IMG/VR virus record: IMGVR_UViG_2706794670_000010
Reading direction: 5' to 3' (one strand)
DNA length: 9,346 nucleotides
DNA from: a virus
Taxonomy: Duplodnaviria; Heunggongvirae; Uroviricota; Caudoviricetes
Shown: piece by piece, positions 1-9,346 of the stretch
Layout of the letters: each line of letters begins with the position of its first letter
Numbering within the stretch: the first letter of the stretch is position 1
Translations under genes and position numbers: made by a program
The notes under the pieces: generated by a model
Seen by the model: only the letters and a program-made list of their open reading frames with translations
The model's database searches: none
What the model was told of the DNA's origin: nothing

Positions 1-103
1 GGGACGGAAGTCGCTGTCGTTCTCAAAATCGGTGGAGCTGCATGACAAAGTCATCGGGCATTATCTGAACATAAAACACTATCAATAAGTTGGAGTCATT
101 ACC
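1..103 (+). mobile_element. IS1 insertion sequence, right (3') end; element continues left of the window
   Basis: Bases 1-103 match the IS1 3' region as I recall it, ending in the terminal inverted repeat ...ATCAATAAGTTGGAGTCATTACC at base 103. Orientation is the same as the IS1 end at 9264-9346. Confidence 0.85.
2..88 (+). CDS. insB: IS1 transposase InsB, C-terminal fragment (5' part outside the window)
   Basis: Frame 2 reads ...GRKSLSFSKSVELHDKVIGHYLNIKHYQ then TAA at 86-88, which is the InsB C-terminus. It lies inside the IS1 right end. Confidence 0.75.
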   Translation, partial: GRKSLSFSKSVELHDKVIGHYLNIKHYQ

Positions 104-235
104 AAACGGTTGAAATGTATGCCGCTACTTACGGGTCCTGTAATCCTCTGAATAAACCAGAGGGAAAAGATGATTTCGACAAAATTTACCGCTTCTTGGA
201 GGACCGCTATATCAAAAGCTTAGAGGACGCAGGGA

Positions 236-613
236 TCAAATCCCCAGTGAAGTCACCATTGTCCTGAGAACTTGCAGAACGTCATGATCATAACTTCCAT
301 CCAAACCGCGACGGCGAATTGCTTCTCGTATTACCGGAAGCAGTTCGCTGGAAATCTCGGTGCATATTTCACCTGATAATACGCTTGGCTCAAGTGAGAA
401 TATTGGTGAACTTACGGTCTTGGTCTCGACAGTTTCAGAGTCAGTGCCAACATTATAAAGCTCAACGAAAGCGGTCTTGATTTTCCGGGCCAGATCTTTT
501 GCTGGCTCGCTTGCAATATCTTTCCCGATTTCTCGCAGCACAGAATGCAATGTATGAGCTGCTGTTTTCTGTACATCAGACGGTAAATCTTTAAATTCCA
601 TCGTCAGCCTCAT
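236..613 (-). CDS. hypothetical protein in the leftward (early-left-like) prophage operon, 121-125 aa
   Basis: Open minus-strand frame from the ORF track. Two candidate starts: ATG at 613 overlapping the upstream stop (TGATG), or ATG at 601 preceded by GAGG with a 6-nt spacer. No recognisable catalytic motif. Confidence 0.5.
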   Translation of the reverse strand: MRLTMEFKDLPSDVQKTAAHTLHSVLREIGKDIASEPAKDLARKIKTAFVELYNVGTDSETVETKTVSSPIFSLEPSVLSGEICTEISSELLPVIREAIRRRGLDGSYDHDVLQVLRTMVTSLGI

Positions 614-765
614 CAGTCAGTGTTTCTGGCTAACCAGCAACGCGCGCCAGATTCGGTTTTAAACGTTTTGCTTTTGGTATACGTCATGGCGGTAAACGTT
701 CCATCCTGGTTAGGGAACACGCCGCACACCAGAGATTCGTTGTTGCCAAGATCGATAGTATCCAT
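613..765 (-). CDS. small hypothetical protein (~50 aa; MDTIDLGNNESLVCGVFPNQDGTFTAMTYTKSKTF...)
   Basis: Internal ATG at 765 is preceded by GAGG (5-nt spacer), whereas the ORF-track start at 819 has no Shine-Dalgarno. The stop overlaps the start of the next leftward gene. Size and position recall the small genes next to the Rac repressor, but I cannot confirm identity. Confidence 0.4.
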   Translation of the reverse strand: MDTIDLGNNESLVCGVFPNQDGTFTAMTYTKSKTFKTESGARCWLARNTD

Positions 766-946
766 GCTGACCTCATTTCCCCTTAACGCCGGGGTGGCGG
801 AACAAAAAACCTGCTGCATAGTTAAAGATTGAACCCTGCCGTCATGTTCTTACGCCTCGGGCTGGCTACTTAACCCCTGACCACTGTCTGGTAACTCGAA
901 GTATTGCCCTGCATTCTGTGGGGCGGGGTGGGTTGACGCCTGAAAC

Positions 947-989
947 AATAGCATCATTATTTTTTTTTGATGTAAATAGCATCGCTATT
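947..989. promoter_or_regulatory. OL-like operator pair: AATAGCATCATTATT (947-961) and the perfect 6-3-6 palindrome AATAGCATCGCTATT (975-989)
   Basis: Read directly from the sequence. The half-site AATAG(C/T) with an ATC spacer is the same as in the palindromes between the divergent repressor and cro-like genes (2085-2125). The pair sits upstream of the leftward operon starting at 765, beyond the terminator of the repressor operon. A matching -10/-35 could not be assigned confidently. Confidence 0.4.
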
Positions 990-1004
990 GTTTTTTGTTG
1001 GGGC

Positions 1005-1029
1005 AAGAAAAAACCACCCTAAGGTGGTT
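1005..1029 (-). terminator. putative intrinsic terminator for the leftward repressor/antitoxin/toxin operon
   Basis: A 7-bp stem AACCACC (1012-1018) / GGTGGTT (1023-1029) with loop CTAA. On the minus-strand transcript the hairpin is followed by UUUUCUU (complement of 1005-1011). It lies 17 bp past the toxin stop at 1046. Confidence 0.45.
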
Positions 1030-1045
1030 CTGTCGGCGGGAATAA

Positions 1046-1336
1046 TTAACTGTTTTTGCCTGGATACTGTCTTCGAGAATGCACAATATTTACTACTTCT
1101 ATGCTTGATGCTGTTACTCGGTAAAGGATGATGTAGTTAGGATGAGTTACAATTTCACGAAGACCAAGAACTCGCTCGCTTGGAGGATACAGGTAAGGAT
1201 GCTCTGTGAGCGGCAAAACGGATGTTTCAATTCGAATTTTCATTCTGCGTGCTGCCGCGGGATTTTCTTTAGCTATGTAGGCTACGATCTGGCGCAAATC
1301 ATCACGAGCAGATGGTAGCCATAAAACGGGTAACAT
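1046..1336 (-). CDS. type II toxin-antitoxin toxin, ParE/RelE superfamily (96 aa)
   Basis: Translation MLPVLWLPSARDDLRQIVAYIAKENPAAARRMKIRIE...IILYRVTASSIEVVNIVHSRRQYP has the ParE/RelE sequence pattern (N-terminal helices, C-terminal YR/VHSRR-type beta region). Its start overlaps the upstream gene's stop as TAATG. Confidence 0.8.
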   Translation of the reverse strand: MLPVLWLPSARDDLRQIVAYIAKENPAAARRMKIRIETSVLPLTEHPYLYPPSERVLGLREIVTHPNYIILYRVTASSIEVVNIVHSRRQYPGKNS

Positions 1337-1530
1337 TATTCACCTCTGTGAGTTGCAGCAGCAATTTGGGCAATAATTTGTTCCATTTCCGCCATTACCT
1401 CATCATGCGGAATCGCCGGGCGGGGATCCGCGAGGCTTGCTGCTACTTTGGCCCGCAGCCATTCGTTGTAACTATTTTCTTGCTCAACTGTCTCAAATTC
1501 TGAAACCATTGGGGAAAGGACTGTACTCAT
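1336..1530 (-). CDS. cognate antitoxin (ParD-like / CC2985-type addiction-module antidote, 64 aa)
   Basis: Small acidic protein (...EWLRAKVAASLADPRPAIPHDEVMAEMEQII...) immediately upstream of, and overlapping, the ParE-like gene. GAGGAG lies about 9 nt upstream of the ATG at 1530. Its start is 19 bp below the repressor stop. Confidence 0.7.
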   Translation of the reverse strand: MSTVLSPMVSEFETVEQENSYNEWLRAKVAASLADPRPAIPHDEVMAEMEQIIAQIAAATHRGE

Positions 1531-1549
1531 TTTACATATCTCCTCTGAT

Positions 1550-2050
1550 TTAGGCGCGACGGCCTTTTTGTGCAGCTAACCACCGCGCAACCGTACGATC
1601 CATTGATTCTTTTTTATCTTTCATCTCCTGAAGCATGTGTTCTTGATCTTCTTTCGGAAAAGCTCTGAACGTATGGATTAAATCTCGTTCCATCGGCTCT
1701 ACGGCAAACGGTAGTTCATCCTCTGTTTGTTCTGTGTCTGCTGGTAATGCGACTATGTTATCTTGCTGTGGTTCTCGACAATACATCCTTGCAATTTGCA
1801 GCAAATCTACCATGTCTGGCCTGATTGACTCAGGGGGAACTTTCAGTAAGCCAGCAAACTTTAGAACAGCCTCAAGGTTTAGTGGGGTTTGACCATTTAG
1901 GTAGTGACTTACCGCCCCTTGTGTTGAAAACCCCATAATTTCCGCCGCACGTTCCTGAGTCAATCCCAACTGAGATTTCTTTGCCATCCAGATTTCTTTC
2001 AGTCTTCTGGCGGCGTTGAGGTCGGTGTCTGACAATGATTTTCTTTTCAT
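1550..2050 (-). CDS. CI-like prophage repressor, Xre-family HTH, no S24 peptidase domain (RacR-like architecture)
   Basis: HTH segment LGLTQERAAEIMGFSTQGAVSHYLNGQ. It is divergent from the cro-like gene with operator palindromes in between. The first ATG is at 2050 (166 aa); the ORF-track start at 2080 is a GTG without a Shine-Dalgarno. The C-terminal region lacks the Ala-Gly/Ser-Lys autocleavage signature. Confidence 0.8.
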   Translation of the reverse strand: MKRKSLSDTDLNAARRLKEIWMAKKSQLGLTQERAAEIMGFSTQGAVSHYLNGQTPLNLEAVLKFAGLLKVPPESIRPDMVDLLQIARMYCREPQQDNIVALPADTEQTEDELPFAVEPMERDLIHTFRAFPKEDQEHMLQEMKDKKESMDRTVARWLAAQKGRRA

Positions 2051-2084
2051 ACATCCAATTCTAATAAGATTGCTAATCACTTTG

Positions 2085-2125
2085 AAATAGTATCACTATT
2101 TACTTTTAAAAATAACAGTGCTATT
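2085..2125. promoter_or_regulatory. OR-like operator region: palindrome AAATAGTATCACTATTT (2085-2101) and related site AATAACAGTGCTATT (2111-2125); candidate rightward promoter -35 TTTACT (2099-2104) and -10 TATTAA (2122-2127)
   Basis: Inverted repeats read directly from the 111-bp interval between the divergent repressor and cro-like genes; centres are 25 bp apart. The promoter hexamers are weak matches with a 17-bp spacer. Confidence 0.45.
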
Positions 2126-2161
2126 AATTATGCATTGGTAACACATCACATAGGGCGGATT

Positions 2162-2425
2162 ATGAATCTTGGAGAATATTTGCATCATTTTCATATAACC
2201 CAGAGTTCATTTGCTGAGATTGTTGGCGCATCCCAAGGGATGGTCAGCCACGTTATAACGGGGCGTGCAAAACTTACAGGAGAAAAAATATTACGTTGGT
2301 GTGAAGCAACGGGATGGGTGGTGACCCCACATGAGATTGACAGTAAAACCTACCCCAACCCAACTGACGGCTTGCCTGCTGAGTTTCAGGCTAACACACA
2401 ACCATCGGCGGGGGTTGATTCATGA
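2162..2425 (+). CDS. Cro-like / YdaS-like HTH regulator (~87 aa)
   Basis: HTH segment SSFAEIVGASQGMVSHVITGRAKLTGEK. It is the first rightward gene opposite the repressor. ATG at 2162 is preferred over the in-frame TTG at 2135. Its stop overlaps the next start as ATGA. Confidence 0.7.
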   Translation: MNLGEYLHHFHITQSSFAEIVGASQGMVSHVITGRAKLTGEKILRWCEATGWVVTPHEIDSKTYPNPTDGLPAEFQANTQPSAGVDS

Positions 2426-2847
2426 AAATCAAGCATGAACACATCCGCATGGCGATGAAAGCCTGGGCGCATCCGGACGGTGAAAAAGTTCCGGCAGCTG
2501 AAATAACCAGGGTTTATTTCGAACTGGGAATGACGTTTCCGGTTCTGCATAACGACAGCAAGCACAACACGCTTTATCTCAACACCCAAAAGATTTTCCG
2601 TTGGCTGGATAAAGACACCCCTGACGCTGTTGAAAAAATTCAGGCGTTGTTACCTGCGATCGAAAGGGCAATGCCACCTCCGCTGGTGGCTCGAATGCGC
2701 AGCCACAGTTCAGCTTATTTTCGGGAACTGGTGGAGACGCATGAACGACTGGTGAGAGACGCTGATGATTTTGTCGCAGTGGCAATCGCCGGTTTCAATC
2801 AGATGAACCGTGGTGGCCCGGCAGGAAATGCTGTGGCAGTACATTGA
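2422..2847 (+). CDS. YdaT-like (CII-analogue) prophage regulator, 141 aa
   Basis: Begins MKIKHEHI..., which I recall as characteristic of the YdaT family of Rac-type prophages. It sits in the cII position and is translationally coupled to the cro-like gene. Confidence 0.65.
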   Translation: MKIKHEHIRMAMKAWAHPDGEKVPAAEITRVYFELGMTFPVLHNDSKHNTLYLNTQKIFRWLDKDTPDAVEKIQALLPAIERAMPPPLVARMRSHSSAYFRELVETHERLVRDADDFVAVAIAGFNQMNRGGPAGNAVAVH

Positions 2848-2918
2848 CTGACAATAGCCATATCGAATCGCTCCCGGCAACTCGTGAGTAAAAAGATTCG
2901 GTATCAGAAGAGGTGAGT

Positions 2919-3593
2919 ATGGCTAACGCCTGGCTCAGATTATGGCATGACATGCCAAATGACCCTAAGTGGCGAACAATTGCCAGGGTGTCAGGGCAGC
3001 CAATTGCAACAGTGATGGCAGTGTATATCCACCTCCTGGNNNNNNNNNNNNNNNNNNNNNNNNNNNNNNNNNNNNNNNNNNNNNNNNNNNNNNNNNNNNN
3101 NNNNNNNNNNNNNNNNNNNNNNNNNNNNNNNNNNNNNNNNNNNNNNNNNNNNNNNNNNNNNNNNNNNNNNNNNNNNNNNNNNNNNNNNNNNNNNNNNNNN
3201 NNNNNNNNNNNNNNNNNNNNNNNNNNNNNNNNNNNNNNNNNNNNNNNNNNNNNNNNNNNNNNNNNNNNNNNNNNNNNNNNNNNNNNNNNACAAAATGGCG
3301 ATTGTCACGGCGCGTCACGAAATGTCACGCACATGTCACGACGAGTCACGACAGATACAGATAAAGATACAGATAAAGAAGATCAAAACACTATGGTCCA
3401 TGGCGTAAAAAACGCCACGAACCAGGCAGGGGATGTTCAGACCGTCAATCCTGGTCAGCCAGCAGGCTCGACACCGGAAGCCGATTCAGCGTATGCGCTG
3501 AAAGCCGATTCGGGCGCTGTGCAGCAGGTGATGACCGCAAGGCCGGAGCAATCACTCCAACTGCAGCAGCCTGAAGCCGATTCCGCCATTCAG
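2919..3593 (+). CDS. phage replication initiator (O-like / replisome organiser), partial: interrupted by masked run 3040-3289 and running into masked run 3594-3859
   Basis: ATG at 2919 is preceded by GAGGTGAG. The N-terminus MANAWLRLWHDMPNDPKWRTIARVSGQPIATVMAVYIHLL is typical of phage replication-initiator N-domains. The frame stays open through the visible stretch 3290-3593, which holds the iterons and a low-complexity linker. The true 3' end is not visible. Confidence 0.6.
3040..3289. other. N-masked run (250 nt), sequence unknown
   Basis: Run of n characters. ORF-track proteins crossing it are X-filled and uninformative. Confidence 1.
3304..3377 (+). repeat. candidate replication-origin iterons inside the initiator gene: GTCACG x5 phased at 10-11 bp (3304, 3314, 3324, 3335, 3345), then 12-bp direct repeat GATACAGATAAA x2 (3354-3365, 3366-3377)
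   Basis: Read directly from the sequence. Helical-period phasing of a short motif followed by an A-rich stretch inside the initiator gene parallels the lambda arrangement, where ori lies within O. The upstream extent is hidden by masking. Confidence 0.55.
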
Positions 3594-3859
3594 NNNNNNN
3601 NNNNNNNNNNNNNNNNNNNNNNNNNNNNNNNNNNNNNNNNNNNNNNNNNNNNNNNNNNNNNNNNNNNNNNNNNNNNNNNNNNNNNNNNNNNNNNNNNNNN
3701 NNNNNNNNNNNNNNNNNNNNNNNNNNNNNNNNNNNNNNNNNNNNNNNNNNNNNNNNNNNNNNNNNNNNNNNNNNNNNNNNNNNNNNNNNNNNNNNNNNNN
3801 NNNNNNNNNNNNNNNNNNNNNNNNNNNNNNNNNNNNNNNNNNNNNNNNNNNNNNNNNNN
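3594..3859. other. N-masked run (266 nt), sequence unknown; hides the end of the initiator gene and/or the start of the helicase-loader gene
   Basis: Run of n characters. Confidence 1.
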
Positions 3860-3898
3860 TGTGAATCATATTTCTGAACCGGATACCGAAATTCCGCC

Positions 3899-3919
3899 NN
3901 NNNNNNNNNNNNNNNNNNN
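3899..3919. other. N-masked run (21 nt)
   Basis: Run of n characters. Confidence 1.
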
Positions 3920-3921
3920 CT

Positions 3922-4386
3922 GACGAACTGATGACCGGGTGCACGAATTTTGTGTTCAGCGGTAAAACCGGCACCGGGAAAAATCACCTTGCAGCGGCGA
4001 TGGGTAACCGGCTGATGGCGAAGGGGCGCAGCGTGATTATCGTCACCGAGTCTGATGTCATGAGCGTGTTGCATGACAGCTACGACAACGGCAAATCCGG
4101 TGAAAAATTTTTACAGGAGCTTTGCGGGGTTGATTTGCTGGTCCTGGATGAAATAGGCATTCAGCGGGAGACGAAAAACGAGCAGGTGGTATTGCACCAG
4201 ATAATTGATCGCCGGACAGCATCACTGTGCAGTGTCGGGATGTTAACAAACCTGAATCATGCCGCAATGAGCACGCTTCTTGGTGAGAGGATTATGGACC
4301 GCATGACCATGAACGGTTGTCGGTGGGTGACGTTTAACTGGGATAGCTGGCGTTCAAATGTCAGCTTTCCGGGAGTTGTGAAGTAA
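3922..4386 (+). CDS. DnaC-like helicase loader (IstB-like AAA+ ATPase), C-terminal ~155 aa visible; 5' part lies in masked sequence
   Basis: Walker A FSGKTGTGKNHLAAA and Walker B LLVLDEIG, and the visible stretch follows my recalled DnaC sequence closely. The frame is open upstream into the N-run, and ATG at 3931 would sit only 10 residues before the Walker A, so the real start is upstream. Stop at 4384-4386. Confidence 0.8.
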   Translation, partial: DELMTGCTNFVFSGKTGTGKNHLAAAMGNRLMAKGRSVIIVTESDVMSVLHDSYDNGKSGEKFLQELCGVDLLVLDEIGIQRETKNEQVVLHQIIDRRTASLCSVGMLTNLNHAAMSTLLGERIMDRMTMNGCRWVTFNWDSWRSNVSFPGVVK

Positions 4387-4407
4387 TTTTTGTTGGAGGA
4401 TGTTTTA

Positions 4408-5133
4408 ATGGAAACTGTATTTGACGCACTGAAAGCACTGAAAAGAGCCTCTTCACATGTGGTGGCGTCCCGCCTTGGAATCAGCCGTGAAGATGCGGTC
4501 AACGAACTGTGGAAACTGAAGCGCCGTGGTGAAGCGGATAACAAGGGTTCGATGTGGTGGCTGATTCAGGCTGGTGAAAGTGAACCAGTGTCACCGGTAC
4601 CGAAAGTGACAGCGCAAATGCTGACTGAGGCGATTGAACAACATGGCCCACAAACGGCGGATGAGCTGGCACTGATGTTCGGGATTACCTCCCGCCGGGC
4701 GAATTCATCGCTGGCCATGGCAATCAGCAAAGGGCGTCTGATTCGCGTGAATCAGGGCGGTAAATTTCGGTACTGCATACCGGGCGCTGATTTACCGGCA
4801 GAGCCGAAAGCCGCATCCATAGCGGAAACGGATGGTAAAGTCTTTCCTCAGCCAGCAGGTGTTGCGTTACCGGTACAGGAAGCTGCAACACAGGAAGAAA
4901 TTAAAACAGAAACTGTGGCGGACATTGTGCAGTCGTTGCCATCGTTCACCGAAACGCAAGCGGATGACCTGGTTTTACCATCGCTGCATATGGCAAACCG
5001 CGAACTGCGTCGGGCGAAAAGTCATGTCCAGAAGTGGGAGCGTGTCTGCGCCGCGTTGCGGGAGCTGAACAAGCACCGGGATATTGTTCGACAGATTGTC
5101 GATTCCTCCGGTCGTATTGTGTCGGAAAAGTGA
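4408..5133 (+). CDS. hypothetical phage protein, 241 aa, two tandem winged-helix-like segments plus acidic linker and helical C-terminus
   Basis: GGAGGA lies 7 nt upstream of ATG 4408; the ORF-track start at 4390 is a TTG. Segments [22 protein letters not shown] and [28 protein letters not shown] look like wHTH recognition regions. Family not identified. Confidence 0.6.
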
Positions 5134-5148
5134 TTGCCGGGGGCGCTT

Positions 5149-5571
5149 ATGGCAAAAGTATTTACACAGGAAGAGCGGGAAAAAATTAAGGGGCAGGTTG
5201 TTGAACTCGTACGCCAGAGTGGGCGCGAGACGTTACGACAACTGGAAGCTAAAACCGGGGCGACAAGATATTTAATAAGCGTTCTCGCCAGAGAGCTGGT
5301 TGCCAGTGGGGATGTATACAACTCTGGCTACGGGTTATTCCCGTCTGAACAGGCTCGTAAGGACTGGCAAAACGCCCGCAAAAAACTCTCGAGGGCAAAG
5401 CTGAAGAAACCATCTGTGGTTGATCCGGACCTTATCTGGTCATTACCGGACGGAGAAATACGCCGCTACGACAGACATCAGAACATAATCTGTCGCGAGT
5501 GCCGGAAGAGTGAAGTTATGCAGCGTGTACCGGCTTTCTATCAGGGTGATTTTCAGGAGGCGGTACTGTGA
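5149..5571 (+). CDS. hypothetical protein, 140 aa, N-terminal winged-helix-like segment, C-terminal CxxC
   Basis: ATG at 5149 is preceded by GGGGG (5-nt spacer) and follows the previous stop by 15 nt. Contains ETLRQLEAKTGATRYLISVLARELVASGDV and CRECRK. Confidence 0.55.
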   Translation: MAKVFTQEEREKIKGQVVELVRQSGRETLRQLEAKTGATRYLISVLARELVASGDVYNSGYGLFPSEQARKDWQNARKKLSRAKLKKPSVVDPDLIWSLPDGEIRRYDRHQNIICRECRKSEVMQRVPAFYQGDFQEAVL

Positions 5572-5628
5572 GTGAAATTAGCTATCAGGCTTCAATTACC
5601 GCTGGCATTCGCATCAAAGGAGAGGAGC

Positions 5629-5985
5629 ATGGAAATAAAACCAGAAGATGAGTTAAGCAATATTGTTTTATTTCCGGTAAAAGAGGATAACCCTCGTAAT
5701 CAGGTTAATTTTCTTTATGAGCCATCGGAAAGACCATATTGCCATCACGCTTCTGTCCGGGTTGACGAAAAAGAGCGTCAGGTCCGCTGTAAAATTTGCG
5801 GTGCAGTTGTGGAGCCATTTGACTGGATGCTCTCTGTGGCGAAAAGAGAAACCAGACTGGCAGATGATGTAAGGCTCTTGCGCCAGGAGGAGCGGGAAAG
5901 GCGAAAAAATATAGAAAAGCTAATCCAGATTGAGCGTAATGCGAAAGCGCGGATACGCAGGGTGACAAAATATAGCCCCGAATAA
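5629..5985 (+). CDS. hypothetical protein, 118 aa, putative zinc ribbon (CHH...CKIC) with basic coiled-coil C-terminus
   Basis: Strong Shine-Dalgarno AGGAGAGGAG at 5617-5626 before ATG 5629; the ORF-track start at 5572 is a GTG directly after the previous stop. Cys/His spacing CHH-x17-CxxC. Confidence 0.55.
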   Translation: MEIKPEDELSNIVLFPVKEDNPRNQVNFLYEPSERPYCHHASVRVDEKERQVRCKICGAVVEPFDWMLSVAKRETRLADDVRLLRQEERERRKNIEKLIQIERNAKARIRRVTKYSPE

Positions 5986-6124
5986 TCAAGGTTATTTCTG
6001 GAAGTCAAGTCGTGAGTGATGAGGACTAACAAATACGGTGAACTCGATAAAGAGATTCAGGACGAACTGGAGGCCAGGAATGATTGACAAATCACCAAGT
6101 GAGTTCAGCTACAAAGATTTATTG

Positions 6125-6140
6125 TCATAACGGGTTATGA
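6125..6140. promoter_or_regulatory. perfect inverted repeat TCATAAC-GG-GTTATGA upstream of the methyltransferase gene (possible operator or RNA hairpin)
   Basis: Read directly from the sequence, 60-110 bp upstream of the candidate methyltransferase starts. Function is not established. Confidence 0.2.
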
Positions 6141-6199
6141 GATCGACTTGGTGCGTGATATTCTTCGGGCCAGTTTGCTATGCGCCACCATGAGATGTT

Positions 6200-8032
6200 A
6201 TGGCCCGCATGTTTGATACATTAGGATTTTACATTATGAATGTGCAACATTTTGATTTTTTTACAGATAATGAGTTTTCTAATCTGGAAAGATATCAAAC
6301 TTGTAAAGCCATGGCCAAAGGTTATGCGGGCAATTACAAAACCGGGCAGTCAAGGTTGATGCATGCCCGCTCATACTGCTTCAGCATCGTAGCTGCATAT
6401 TGGGATACCCTTGCAAAAAAGCAAAAAAGCAGCATTAAAATGAGGGCAGTACCGCACACTGTTTACATAGAAGACATTCCATGTGATGCACGCGAGCTCG
6501 CTGAACGAACAGGTGAGCTTATTGCTCAATTTCCGGCGGAGGACGCTGGATATCTGATTGGGTCAATTTATACGGTAATGCTGCCATCCGCTTACCGTTC
6601 GGAATTGGGGGCTTACTATACCCCCCCACCTTTGGTAGCGCGTCTCTTGGACCTGGCTGAAAAGTCTGGTGTTGATTTTTCTCATGCATCGGTTATTGAT
6701 CCTGCGTGTGGTGGCGGTGCATTTTTGGCACCAGTAGCCATTCGAATGTTAAAAAAAGACAAGGGGTCTTCCCCTGAATGGATGTTGAGGAGAATCAGTC
6801 GTCGTTTAAAGGGGATAGAGATCGATCCATTTGCGGCTTGGATGAGTTTGGTATTGCTCGAATCTGTACTAATGCCACTATGTGTAAAGGTAAAACGTAG
6901 ATTGCCTGAAGATACAATTATTGTTGCTGATGCGCTTCAGCAAGATAAATTTTCTGGTTATGATCTTGTGGTAGGGAATCCGCCTTACGGACGTGTCACT
7001 CTCGATATTAAAACGAGAGAAAAATATTCTCGTTCGTTATTTGGTCATGCAAATCTATATGGATTGTTCACCGACTTAGCTGTTCGCATGGTTAAAGAGA
7101 AAACAGGAGTTATTGCATTTCTTACGCCAACTTCTTTTCTTGGTGGGCAGTATTTCACCGCGCTGCGAACCCTTTTGACCGAAAAAACTACTCCGTATGC
7201 CCTTGATTTCGTCACTGACAGGGATGGGGTCTTTGACGATGTTCTCCAGGAAACAATGTTGACAGCATTCAAGGCGGGAGAACATAAAGTTCGGGCCCAG
7301 GTATCCTCACTTGTCCCTAAGGGGTTGAACAAAGCAAAAATTGAGAAAATAGGTAATGTTGATATAGAAAAAGGTGGAGCAACGTGGCTTTTGCCACGCG
7401 TTAAAGATGATGCCTGTTTTCTTAATGTATTAAAACAGATGTCTACGCGTTTAGCTGATCTGGGATACTCAGTCTCTACAGGTCAGTTAGTCTGGAATCG
7501 ATTTAAGTCGCAGTTGCGTACGACGAAAGGAAAAAATAGCTACCCATTAGTCTGGGCGGAATCAATAACTTCAGCTGGTTTTCGTTTTAGTGCAGACAGA
7601 AAAAATCATGTTCCCTATATCGATATAACCCCACAACAGGGTTTCCTTGTGACAAAATCTGAATGTGTGCTTGTTCAGCGGACAACATCGAAGGAACAGG
7701 ACAGAAGGATTTTAGCGGCAATTTTACCTCAGGGATTTATAGATGAAACTGGTGGCGTAGTAGTTGAAAACCATATTAATATTGTATATTCAAACGGATT
7801 GTTCTCTGCGGTTCGCCCTGATGTTATTGATATGCTACTTAATTCGCATGTTGTCGATCGGGCGTTCAGGTGTATAAGCGGAAGTGTTGCTGTTTCGGCC
7901 TATGAATTGAATTCAATCCCGTTGCCTTCTCTGGAGCAGGTGATGGAGATTCAATCGTTAATTGATGCTGGCGTCCACAGACGGATTATTGAGAGAACTA
8001 TCGCTGGTTTCTATGGAGTGATGATTGCATGA
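6200..8032 (+). CDS. gamma-class N6-adenine DNA methyltransferase (Type II R-M modification subunit), 598-610 aa
   Basis: Motif order YYTPPP (motif X), then DPACGGGAFL (motif I, AdoMet binding), then VVGNPPYG (motif IV, NPPY), then a long C-terminal target-recognition region. Start is ambiguous: ATG at 6200 or 6209, or ATG at 6236 with AGGA 9 nt upstream. Stop TGA at 8030-8032 overlaps the next ATG. Confidence 0.85.
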   Translation: MARMFDTLGFYIMNVQHFDFFTDNEFSNLERYQTCKAMAKGYAGNYKTGQSRLMHARSYCFSIVAAYWDTLAKKQKSSIKMRAVPHTVYIEDIPCDARELAERTGELIAQFPAEDAGYLIGSIYTVMLPSAYRSELGAYYTPPPLVARLLDLAEKSGVDFSHASVIDPACGGGAFLAPVAIRMLKKDKGSSPEWMLRRISRRLKGIEIDPFAAWMSLVLLESVLMPLCVKVKRRLPEDTIIVADALQQDKFSGYDLVVGNPPYGRVTLDIKTREKYSRSLFGHANLYGLFTDLAVRMVKEKTGVIAFLTPTSFLGGQYFTALRTLLTEKTTPYALDFVTDRDGVFDDVLQETMLTAFKAGEHKVRAQVSSLVPKGLNKAKIEKIGNVDIEKGGATWLLPRVKDDACFLNVLKQMSTRLADLGYSVSTGQLVWNRFKSQLRTTKGKNSYPLVWAESITSAGFRFSADRKNHVPYIDITPQQGFLVTKSECVLVQRTTSKEQDRRILAAILPQGFIDETGGVVVENHINIVYSNGLFSAVRPDVIDMLLNSHVVDRAFRCISGSVAVSAYELNSIPLPSLEQVMEIQSLIDAGVHRRIIERTIAGFYGVMIA

Positions 8033-9111
8033 ATCTGCCTGTTGTTCCCCCATTGAATGTTATCCGGGAAAGATTACAATTAATTTTCCCTGAAGGGACT
8101 GAGAATCGTGGATATTTAATTCGGGAAATAGCTGCAAAAACAATTTTTGTCATGTTTTATGCTGGTGCGGTTGAGGGGCTGGGGCGATGGATAAGGCCCA
8201 GCCAGGTTGTAAGTATGGGAGATTCGCAGGCTGCTCTTACTGATGATGCGTCCAGAGAAAGCTGGGTAAAGATGACTTTCTCTAAACAAAAGATAAGGCC
8301 TGCTGATGCATGGTATGCGGAAAATACGCGTGAGCCAATACGTGATGAAACTATAAAAAATGGCCTAATACCTTGCAATGCAATTGTTGAGCGTAAAGGT
8401 ATACCCACCACATCCTCTCGTCCTCGTTACAGTTTGAATCGCTCTTTTGCAGCACTCTTTGATGCCGGGCTTGAAGGAGATTCGCTGCTGAGTGCAATAA
8501 GTTCCTGGCAAGAAAATCATTTGAACAAAGCCGCTCTTGCTAGGTTGCGTTTATTGAAATCAGGGGCAGTGATTGCTGCTGATGCCGTAGTCGTCACTTT
8601 CCCAAATGGAGAGAAGAGAACTTTAGCTCCGGGCCCGTCAAGTACAATAGCTAAGGCCGTCATCGAAGTTTTTGCTCCTAATTTTCTTAAGAATCCAACT
8701 GTGCTCTGGTTGTCTGAATCCGGGAATAAAGTTGTTGCTCAGGATGATGTATTGGCAAAAGCATTGGGGCTGAATATTGATGCCTCAAAAGCACTTCCAG
8801 ATATTATTTTGATTGATTTGGGAGAGGACCGAACGGGTTCGGACATGCTTGTAGTTTTCACTGAAGTAGTTGCGACAGATGGGCCTATAAACAGGGAACG
8901 AAAAGTTACTCTCACTCATTTGGCTATTGACGCTGGGTTCAGCGAGAAAAATCTTGCATTCCTTACGGCATTTATGGACAGAAGTGCTCTGCCTTTTAAA
9001 AAGGCAATACCAGAATTGGCGTGGGGATCTTATGCATGGTTTGCTTCTGAACCGGAGCACTTAATTGATCTTCGGGATGGTTATCCGGTAAAGATCAGCC
9101 AGAGAAAATGA
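8029..9111 (+). CDS. putative Type II restriction endonuclease partner of the methyltransferase (possibly BsuBI/PstI-like; family unverified), 360 aa
   Basis: ATGA start/stop overlap with the methyltransferase and GGAG 10 nt upstream indicate translational coupling. Same AT-richer composition as the methyltransferase. I could not locate an unambiguous PD-(D/E)xK motif by eye, so nuclease identity is inferred from context. Confidence 0.55.
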   Translation: MNLPVVPPLNVIRERLQLIFPEGTENRGYLIREIAAKTIFVMFYAGAVEGLGRWIRPSQVVSMGDSQAALTDDASRESWVKMTFSKQKIRPADAWYAENTREPIRDETIKNGLIPCNAIVERKGIPTTSSRPRYSLNRSFAALFDAGLEGDSLLSAISSWQENHLNKAALARLRLLKSGAVIAADAVVVTFPNGEKRTLAPGPSSTIAKAVIEVFAPNFLKNPTVLWLSESGNKVVAQDDVLAKALGLNIDASKALPDIILIDLGEDRTGSDMLVVFTEVVATDGPINRERKVTLTHLAIDAGFSEKNLAFLTAFMDRSALPFKKAIPELAWGSYAWFASEPEHLIDLRDGYPVKISQRK

Positions 9112-9263
9112 CCAAAGTTTGATATCCGCCACGCCCTGAAGGATGGGGGTTTTACGGTGCACTGGATAAAAAATCGGTTTCATAGATTTGCCCACCGTGG
9201 TATACGCCTGCGATAAAAACTTTATTGTCATCAACGGCAAAAGCAATAATTGTTCTGTGGCGG

Positions 9264-9346
9264 GGTGATGCTGCCAACTTACTGATTTAGTGTATGATGG
9301 TGTTTTTGAGGTGCTCCAGTGGCTTCTGTTTCTATCAGCTGTCCCT
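9264..9346 (+). mobile_element. IS1 insertion sequence, left (5') end; element continues right of the window
   Basis: GGTGATGCTGCCAACTTACTGATTTAGTGTATGATGGTGTTTTTGAGGTGCTCCAGTGGCTTCTGTTTCTATCAGCTGTCCCT matches the IS1 left terminal repeat and insA leader as I recall them. Same orientation as the IS1 end at 1-103. Confidence 0.85.
9319..9346 (+). CDS. insA: IS1 InsA, N-terminal fragment (GTG start; continues beyond window)
   Basis: GTG GCT TCT GTT TCT ATC AGC TGT CCC translates to (M)ASVSISCP, the InsA N-terminus. Confidence 0.7.

Follow-up and report, generated by a model that had tools for sequence, protein, structure and literature searches.

Two direct IS1 copies around a prophage core at the Qin site: probable decay in place by insertion and deletion

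The 9,346-nt stretch of viral DNA recorded as IMGVR_UViG_2706794670_000010 (the window, to which all coordinates below refer) begins and ends inside copies of the insertion sequence IS1 lying in direct orientation. The question raised by this locus is whether the two copies delimit a unit that has moved, or whether they are what insertion and deletion left around a prophage decaying at its own site. We favor the second answer: with a probability of roughly 0.85, the window is the surviving core of a lambdoid prophage at the Qin site of a Shigella sonnei-type chromosome, shaped by IS1 insertion and deletion. An earlier interpretation of this DNA (the sequence-only reading) described the cargo as an iteron-bearing replication module, a repressor-linked, ParDE-like toxin-antitoxin (TA) pair and a restriction-modification (R-M) pair, and the domain and profile matches given below agree with it. 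In what follows, IS1-1 and IS1-2 are the left and the right bracketing copies, IS1-0 is the copy 1.24 kb to the left of IS1-1, and L-numbers (e.g., L008) denote the compared genomic loci from other assemblies.

Both ends of the window are IS1 in direct orientation, as had been proposed. Positions 1-103 (+ strand) match the final 103 nt of the 768-bp element exactly and form the right end (the right inverted repeat, IRR, side) of IS1-1, and positions 9264-9346 (+) are identical to its first 83 nt and form the left end (the left inverted repeat, IRL, side) of IS1-2, with insA to insB running left to right in both copies (+ strand in L007, L010, and L011). Finished genomes were looked up with two exact protein queries, the endonuclease (8029-9111) and a 121-amino acid (aa) open reading frame (ORF) at 236-601 on the - strand; both proteins are encoded inside the unit, and genomes without the unit could not appear in the sample. 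The look-up yielded 18 finished chromosomes (4.78-5.03 Mb), in each of which the segment, 99.9-100% identical, lies between two direct IS1 copies that are both complete. One of them is CP000038.1 (4,825,265 bp), which we take to be S. sonnei Ss046. Junctions were compared in 17 finished loci (L005-L008, L010-L013, and L015-L023), where the bracketing copies are complete, 767-769 bp long, and differ at 0-2 positions; the InsA zinc-ribbon, HTH_Tnp_IS1, and DDE_Tnp_IS1 domains were called in both. Thus the extension to both sides and the search for the segment with and without IS1, both proposed earlier, have been answered: the two copies are complete, their outer 9-bp flanks share no duplication, and alongside the IS1-flanked chromosomes there are IS1-free prophage relatives in E. 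coli.

The spacing of 9.16 kb given previously holds as read in the window (9,160 bp), but the true distance between IS1-1 and IS1-2 is 9,508 bp, because the N runs at 3040-3289, 3594-3859, and 3899-3919 (250, 266, and 21 N) are shorter than the sequence they replace, standing for 253, 332, and 302 bp in L008. Within these runs lie the first of the iteron clusters, a portion of the O-like gene, and, at the N terminus of the DnaC-like loader, 97 codons; the shortening shifts all downstream window coordinates by 350 bp relative to the finished genomes.

The ends of the window and the mere existence of a bracket have simple explanations. The exact endonuclease protein occurs in 4192 blocks of the assembly collection, in 2158 of which the longest contig carrying it is 5-10 kb, and for the 121-aa ORF the same is true of 1726 out of 2372 blocks. 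Since most assemblies hold the segment on a contig of this size, the window is a typical short-read contig that ends where IS1 repeats interrupt the assembly, and such breaks explain the isolated contig of about 9 kb found in thousands of short-read assemblies. The genome of S. sonnei 53G contains 165 IS1 copies in 4,988,504 bp (Hawkey et al. 2020, S1 Table, PMC7373316); random scatter of that many copies predicts about 45 IS1-IS1 intervals of at most 9.5 kb, about 22 of them direct. Therefore, the IS1 bracket as such is expected by chance in this host.

The 9 bp that adjoin the two copies on the inside are AAACGGTTG (104-112) and CTGTGGCGG (9255-9263); they differ and so, in agreement with the sequence-only reading, are not a duplicated target. 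That reading had left two options, a composite unit whose duplications lie outside the window and a pair of independent insertions. The former is contradicted by the outer 9-mers, which never match in the 17 finished loci, the left one being AAACGGTTG, CACGGGTCG, or AACCGGAAA and the right one always CATATAACA. The latter stands for IS1-1, which has its own duplication and an empty site in E. coli, but not for IS1-2, which is a deletion junction without a duplication.

IS1-1 is a simple insertion in the early-left region. The 9-mer at 104-112 is the right-hand copy of its 9-bp target-site duplication, the same AAACGGTTG being present on both sides of the element in L008, L011, L012, L016, L018, L021, and L022. 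In two E. coli prophages (L003 and L004) the site is empty: it reads TTTTGATA-AAACGGTTG-AAATG inside a small ORF, with AAACGGTTG present once, and the DNA is continuous over the insertion point (ATGACTAAAGAA...GATAAAACGGTTGAAATG). This ORF, encoding a hypothetical protein of 66 aa in E. coli (WP_000159335.1), is uninterrupted in both loci, and in the window its 3' remainder occupies positions 115-267 (+), the 5' end having been removed by IS1-1. The prophage is truncated, as the earlier interpretation held, but it is not a leftward operon that is cut after position 236: the leftward ORF at 236-601/613 is complete, and it is the small rightward ORF that IS1 cuts.

On the other side, IS1-2 is flanked by CTGTGGCGG and CATATAACA in 17 of 17 finished loci, never by a duplication. 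Its near side adjoins the remnant of a second ParE toxin gene (9152-9263, - strand), of which the last 36 codons and the stop remain, the 5' two-thirds and the ParD antitoxin gene being absent; the remnant is identical, 36 residues out of 36, to residues 68-103 of the 103-aa ParE of E. coli FDAARGOS_943, and intact ParE and ParD genes lie downstream of the R-M pair in L001, L002, and L009. The far side abuts the ydfJ-ydfI spacer: it is colinear with the E. coli spacer (mapped against BL21), starting 48 bp upstream of ydfI. These flanks show IS1-2 joining parE at about codon 67 to the ydfJ-ydfI spacer, so that the whole right arm has been lost through an IS1-associated deletion. Gone to the right are parE from codon ~67, parD, Q, the lysis, head, and tail genes, and ydfJ. 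The missing genes are present in intact relatives of the prophage in E. coli FDAARGOS_943 and VL7S7 and in L009, to which the R-M half of the unit is 98.7-99.1% identical; the intact E. coli relatives have int and xis as well, and no IS1.

E. coli G3/10 (L036, 5383-6150) has an independent IS1 in the same orientation and with the duplication TTTTATTCA, separated by 7 bp from where the right junction falls in S. sonnei (L008, position 12004), and therefore the ydfJ-ydfI spacer is an IS1 hot spot. Formation of the IS1-2 junction by two insertions followed by recombination is plausible; a one-ended adjacent deletion would yield the same product.

Some further observations concern the right side. 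IS1 is also found within ydfJ or ydfI nearby in several other E. coli strains. A further copy in the same orientation, IS1-3, lies 8.2 kb to the right, after mgtT (L005-L013, 20226-20994), and its flanks, CTCCGTTCA and CAGGCGGAA, form no duplication. Four direct IS1 copies thus occur within about 33 kb, and the prophage remnant shares this kind of bracketing with the chromosomal genes from ydfI to dgcZ. Finally, the 19.5-kb draft contig AAWETE010000076.1 (L014) matches window positions 3920-9259, which run from the DnaC-like loader through the R-M pair, at 100% identity and stops 4 bp short of the IS1-2 junction. Its immunity region is a different one that lacks the PaaR2-PaaA2-ParE2 genes, its dicB/exo left arm is intact, and IS1-1 is absent. 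This suggests that the IS1-2 junction may be older than IS1-1, or that the immunity region may have been exchanged by recombination.

The left side differs among strains, and its variants form a series. In the fullest arrangement (State A, L022), dicB is followed by IS1-0 between two copies of AACCGGAAA, a 1.24-kb segment with the Rha gene, IS1-1 between two copies of AAACGGTTG, the 9.5-kb unit, IS1-2 between CTGTGGCGG and CATATAACA, and ydfI. As IS1-0 and IS1-1 each have a perfect 9-bp duplication here, they are two separate simple insertions. State B (L016, L018, and L021) has truncated ynfF, then IS1-0 between CACGGGTCG and AACCGGAAA, the Rha segment, and IS1-1; it is a deletion running leftward from IS1-0 into the core gene ynfF, whose orientation is the one that a plain deletion would leave. 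In State C (Ss046 and eight other genomes, 13 loci) truncated ynfF is followed by a single IS1 between CACGGGTCG and AAACGGTTG, and in State D (L006) dicB is followed by a single IS1 between AACCGGAAA and AAACGGTTG. The hybrid junctions of States C and D are exactly those predicted for recombination between IS1-0 and IS1-1. Most parsimoniously, the Rha segment between the direct IS1 copies was lost twice, from B to C and from A to D. Two independent deletions into ynfF, considered in place of recurrent loss of the Rha segment, would be less parsimonious and would need the same base-pair endpoint twice. The proposal that directly repeated IS1 copies can mobilize or delete the DNA between them is therefore borne out as to deletion, at the neighboring 1.24-kb segment only; movement of the unit has left no evidence.

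In window orientation, IS1-0 occupies positions 7089-7856 of L016. The L020 locus (CP049185.1, 12356-20366) has ynfG cut after 37 codons and followed by genes for AntA, Bro-N, Ead/Ea22, and a 2784-aa MuF/LPD protein; a different prophage or a rearrangement has entered beside the locus in this genome.

Direct pairs of complete IS1 copies around a cargo are familiar from Tn9 and from the IS1-flanked r-determinant of R100/NR1, which can move as units or be excised and amplified by recombination between the IS1 copies. The locus shares this architecture, with two nearly identical, complete, direct copies whose outer ends are intact, and to that extent the description of a potential translocatable unit is justified by structure, though not by any evidence of movement. 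It is very improbable that a Tn9-like composite carrying an origin, a TA pair, and an R-M pair moved into the site as a unit. No target-site duplication surrounds the whole; the flanks are the native neighbors of Qin; and IS1-1 has a duplication of its own, the DNA on its two sides being contiguous in uninterrupted E. coli prophages. Further, in about 50 finished contigs, with limited sampling of Shigella, the unit was found at one place only, between ynfF and ydfI, its natural neighbors as in BL21. None of 72,556 plasmid and 50,697 phage records contains more than 27% of the unit, the matches being mosaic prophage ones in which the R-M genes are absent at the DNA level, and neither inner junction occurs in any of 5,426 complete E. 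coli genomes. Nor was the left junction matched exactly anywhere among the species-representative genomes, whose taxonomy (GTDB) probably folds Shigella into E. coli. The unmatched outer flanks, the native Qin site, and the lack of a plasmid or phage copy above 27% together argue for a remnant that decayed in place; unlike that of Tn9 and the r-determinant, the bracket here arose from one insertion plus deletions within a prophage. Still less credible is that the IS1 ends are an assembly artefact, a contig-end overlap with a collapsed repeat: the window does stop inside IS1 on both sides and most assemblies have the 5-10 kb contig, but finished chromosomes, including the Sanger-era CP000038.1, have complete IS1 copies at exactly these junctions. 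A little more can be said for a latent replicon of the lambda dv type, in which IS1 x IS1 recombination would free a 10.3-kb circle (9,508 bp plus one IS1) with its own origin, able to re-enter at any IS1. The lambda dv plasmids are the minimal lambda replicon, and the cro-like, cII-like, and iteron-bearing O-like genes with the helicase loader correspond to their gene set; the homologous immunity switch is bistable, and IS1 x IS1 recombination does occur at the locus. Against this, no plasmid record has more than 27% of the unit, neither a circular form nor a second location was seen, and the repressor gene is intact, so that in the repressed state the rightward transcription through the origin should be off. 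We consider such a replicon quite unlikely, and equally so its extension to a self-sufficient addiction cassette, in which the 10.3-kb circle, equipped with a lambda-dv-like origin, a bistable switch, and the TA and R-M pairs, would replicate transiently and re-enter at any of the ~165 IS1 copies or in a plasmid. If true, the cassette would both resist deletion and spread, and addiction modules would set limits to IS-driven genome reduction in Shigella.

For decay in place, the following history can be proposed. IS1-1 entered the early-left region by simple transposition, making the AAACGGTTG duplication. On the right, an IS1 would first have inserted into the second parE, harmlessly since the toxin was thereby disarmed, and the antitoxin gene parD could then have been lost, either through a one-ended adjacent deletion or because the element recombined with another IS1 in the hot spot between ydfJ and ydfI. 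Deletions running leftward from IS1-0, together with IS1-0 x IS1-1 recombination, account for the different left flanks among strains. With its two bracketing copies the unit has the form of a Tn9-like composite, one that RecA-mediated recombination could excise; loss of the unit would drop the addictive TA pair and the R-M pair together, and this may be why the erosion stopped. Type II R-M pairs resist loss. The deletion fronts lie beyond the stops of the endonuclease gene, by 152 bp, and of parE2, by 942 bp, and the 9.5-kb unit is present in every sampled genome, the sampling having required its presence. That the addiction modules help the unit resist loss is our tentative suggestion, at somewhat under even odds. 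Neutral persistence, in which the interval has simply escaped deletion so far in a lineage that is young, clonal, and rich in IS1, with no role for the addiction genes, we rate at a little below an even chance. It accords with the roughly 22 short direct intervals per genome expected by chance, with the loss of the second ParDE pair without apparent hindrance, with the sampling bias toward presence, and with the failure to detect ParE2 activity in single cells (Jurenas et al., PMC8630535). It accords less well with the loss (by parsimony, twice) of the adjacent 1.24-kb interval in the same type of bracket when the 9.5-kb interval was lost in no sampled genome, with both deletion fronts halting just outside an addiction module, and with the published plasmid stabilization by the CP-933P locus (PMC8630535).

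Several points weigh against the proposed history and should be set beside it. The assignment to an S. sonnei-type chromosome depends on one accession (CP000038.1) and one NCBI source name, the truncated YnfF fragment from the locus being named '[Shigella sonnei]'. At IS1-2 the sequence fits two insertions plus recombination as well as a one-ended adjacent deletion. The addiction part rests on a sample conditioned on presence, the second ParDE pair did not stop the deletion of the right arm, and for S. sonnei both ParE2 activity and R-M activity are predictions.

Genome reduction in Shigella is known to proceed as IS1 expands, interrupts genes, and provides homologous copies between which DNA is deleted (Hawkey et al. 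2020, PMC7373316). The locus is a worked example of this process, the same in kind, to which it adds a series of states resolved to the base pair; it is an ordinary product of IS-driven genome decay and thus a known kind of thing. It has been present in public S. sonnei genomes since Ss046, and its value is a modest one, as a clean example in which related strains have all the pieces: two insertions with duplications, one deletion junction, and the expected hybrid junctions. It also offers a natural comparison, a 1.24-kb segment without addiction genes having been lost and the adjacent 9.5-kb segment with TA and R-M genes having been kept. If an unbiased survey confirms the retention, this would support addiction modules as barriers to deletion that can be breached by IS insertion into the toxin gene.

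Leftward from the immunity region lie the ParE2-type toxin of 96 aa (1046-1336, -; Pfam ParE_toxin, E=2e-17; PDB 5cw7_B, E=7e-37, 62 of 93 residues identical), the PaaA2-type antitoxin of 64 aa (1336-1530, -; Pfam PF21217 PaaA2, E=3e-23; PDB 3zbe_A, E=1e-23), whose stop overlaps the parE start, and, at the cI position, a PaaR2-like repressor of 166 aa (1550-2050, -; Pfam HTH_3). The repressor matches the N-terminal domain of lambda CI in PDB (E=2.5e-9) over residues 12-91 only; beyond this CI-type helix-turn-helix part, Pfam and PDB searches found no match to a protease (S24) domain. Divergent from it are a YdaS/Cro-like regulator of 87 aa (2162-2425, +; phrog_35, E=8e-17; Pfam HTH_3, E=4e-4, at 20.8 bits under the 23-bit Pfam cutoff) and a YdaT/CII-like regulator of 141 aa (2422-2847, +; Pfam PF06254; phrog_163 'CII-like transcriptional activator', E=3e-40). 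This order of regulator, antitoxin, and toxin on the - strand, divergent from ydaS-ydaT (2162-2847, +), matches the paaR2-paaA2-parE2 layout. In CP-933P of E. coli O157:H7, PaaR2, YdaS, and YdaT play the roles of CI, Cro, and CII, the locus is addictive, and the immunity switch is bistable (PMC8630535); the paaR2-paaA2-parE2 locus stabilizes an unstable plasmid and has been proposed to limit rearrangement of the immunity region (Jurenas et al., PMC8630535). The prophage considered here shares the chromosomal site, ynfF...ydfI, with Qin of E. coli K-12/B, and with CP-933P/Sp12 it shares the leftward repressor-antitoxin-toxin genes and the rightward ydaS-ydaT genes followed by an O-like gene, PaaA2 and ParE2 matching the solved O157 proteins. 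The ParE of the window, about 67% identical to ParE2 of O157, is a homolog of it and another allele. Unlike Qin and CP-933P, the prophage is here reduced to 9.5 kb and bounded by IS1.

Between this locus and IS1-1 are the complete 121-aa early-left ORF of unknown function (236-601, -; phrog_33007) and the gene for a DUF1391 protein, 50 aa as usually annotated (613-765, -; Pfam PF07151, E=3e-28; phrog_751). Immediately beyond the parE2 stop, at 1009-1035 (-), a hairpin GGTGG...CCACC followed by a T run has the look of a terminator for the paaR2-paaA2-parE2 operon; it was seen by eye and is unlisted by the consensus scan. An Rfam scan of the window gave no family at the gathering score. The poly-T tract at 959-968, which lies between parE2 and the DUF1391 gene, is not of the same length in the window as in the finished genomes, the difference being one T; this sole gap in 3 kb of alignment may reflect true polymorphism or a sequencing error in the homopolymer.

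Rightward of ydaT follows the replication module. The O-like replication initiator or replisome organizer (2919-3923, +; 354 aa in finished genomes) matches phrog_3729 'replication initiation protein' (E=3e-250, L008:4541-5605); in the window the gene is partly masked and its end coordinate distorted. It contains origin-like repeats at 3304-3376 (+), namely five GTCACG about 10 bp apart (3304-3350) followed by two copies of AGATACAGATAA (3353-3376), and a second cluster of four GTCAC(G/A) falls inside the masked run 3040-3289. Ten of the 14 GTCACG sites in the 21-kb L008 are concentrated within about 310 bp, nine in repeat orientation and one inverted. Next comes the DnaC-like helicase loader (3899-4386, +, readable at 3931-4386; 248 aa in finished genomes; Pfam IstB_IS21, E=5e-18; phrog_50 'DnaC-like helicase loader', E=2e-79). 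Phased iterons and an A+T-rich stretch inside an initiator gene, beside a helicase-loader gene, are the marks of a lambda-type replication module with a putative origin. The likeness to lambda dv begins at the immunity switch and takes in the O-like and helicase-loader genes and their internal origin, whereas a DnaC-like loader replaces lambda P, the repressor is intact, and there is no sign of an extrachromosomal form. Three small genes between the replication module and the R-M pair are nin-region genes; they encode a DUF1627 protein of 241 aa (4408-5133, +), a DUF977/Ren-like protein of 140 aa (5149-5571, +; phrog_142), and a 118-aa protein of unknown function (5629-5985, +; phrog_1621).

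The R-M pair consists of a type II N6-adenine DNA methyltransferase of 610 aa with an NPPY motif (6200-8032, +; Pfam Eco57I, PF07669, and N6_Mtase, PF02384; PADLOC MTase_II, E=2e-300) and a type II endonuclease of the BsuBI/PstI family of 360 aa (8029-9111, +; Pfam PF17728, E=1e-30, and PF06616, E=9e-45; PADLOC REase_II, E=3e-128), the ATG of which overlaps the methyltransferase stop (ATGA). The G+C content is 42-46% in this region vs 50-57% in the replication genes. Among species-representative genomes, the nearest relatives of the endonuclease are found in Paraburkholderia, Burkholderia, Erwinia dacicola, and Pseudomonas (63-68%), followed by sphingomonads (50-55%); no sequenced phage carries it. 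Judging from these comparisons, the enzyme appears to be horizontally acquired and of uncharacterised specificity. A related arrangement is EcoGIII of Stx2a phages, a BsuBI/PstI-family R-M system that methylates CTGCAG (PMC3893438); in both cases a methyltransferase and an endonuclease of the same Pfam families form an extra cassette in a lambdoid prophage, whereas the endonucleases are only about 27% identical. At this identity, assignment of CTGCAG specificity by analogy with EcoGIII is unsupported, and the two CTGCAG sites in the unit decide nothing in this respect. Finally, in L007, L017, and L019 the methyltransferase is split into parts of 133 and 428 aa beside an intact endonuclease, a combination that, if real, would call for an explanation; as the O-like and YdaT genes are broken in the same loci, these splits are probably assembly (homopolymer) errors.

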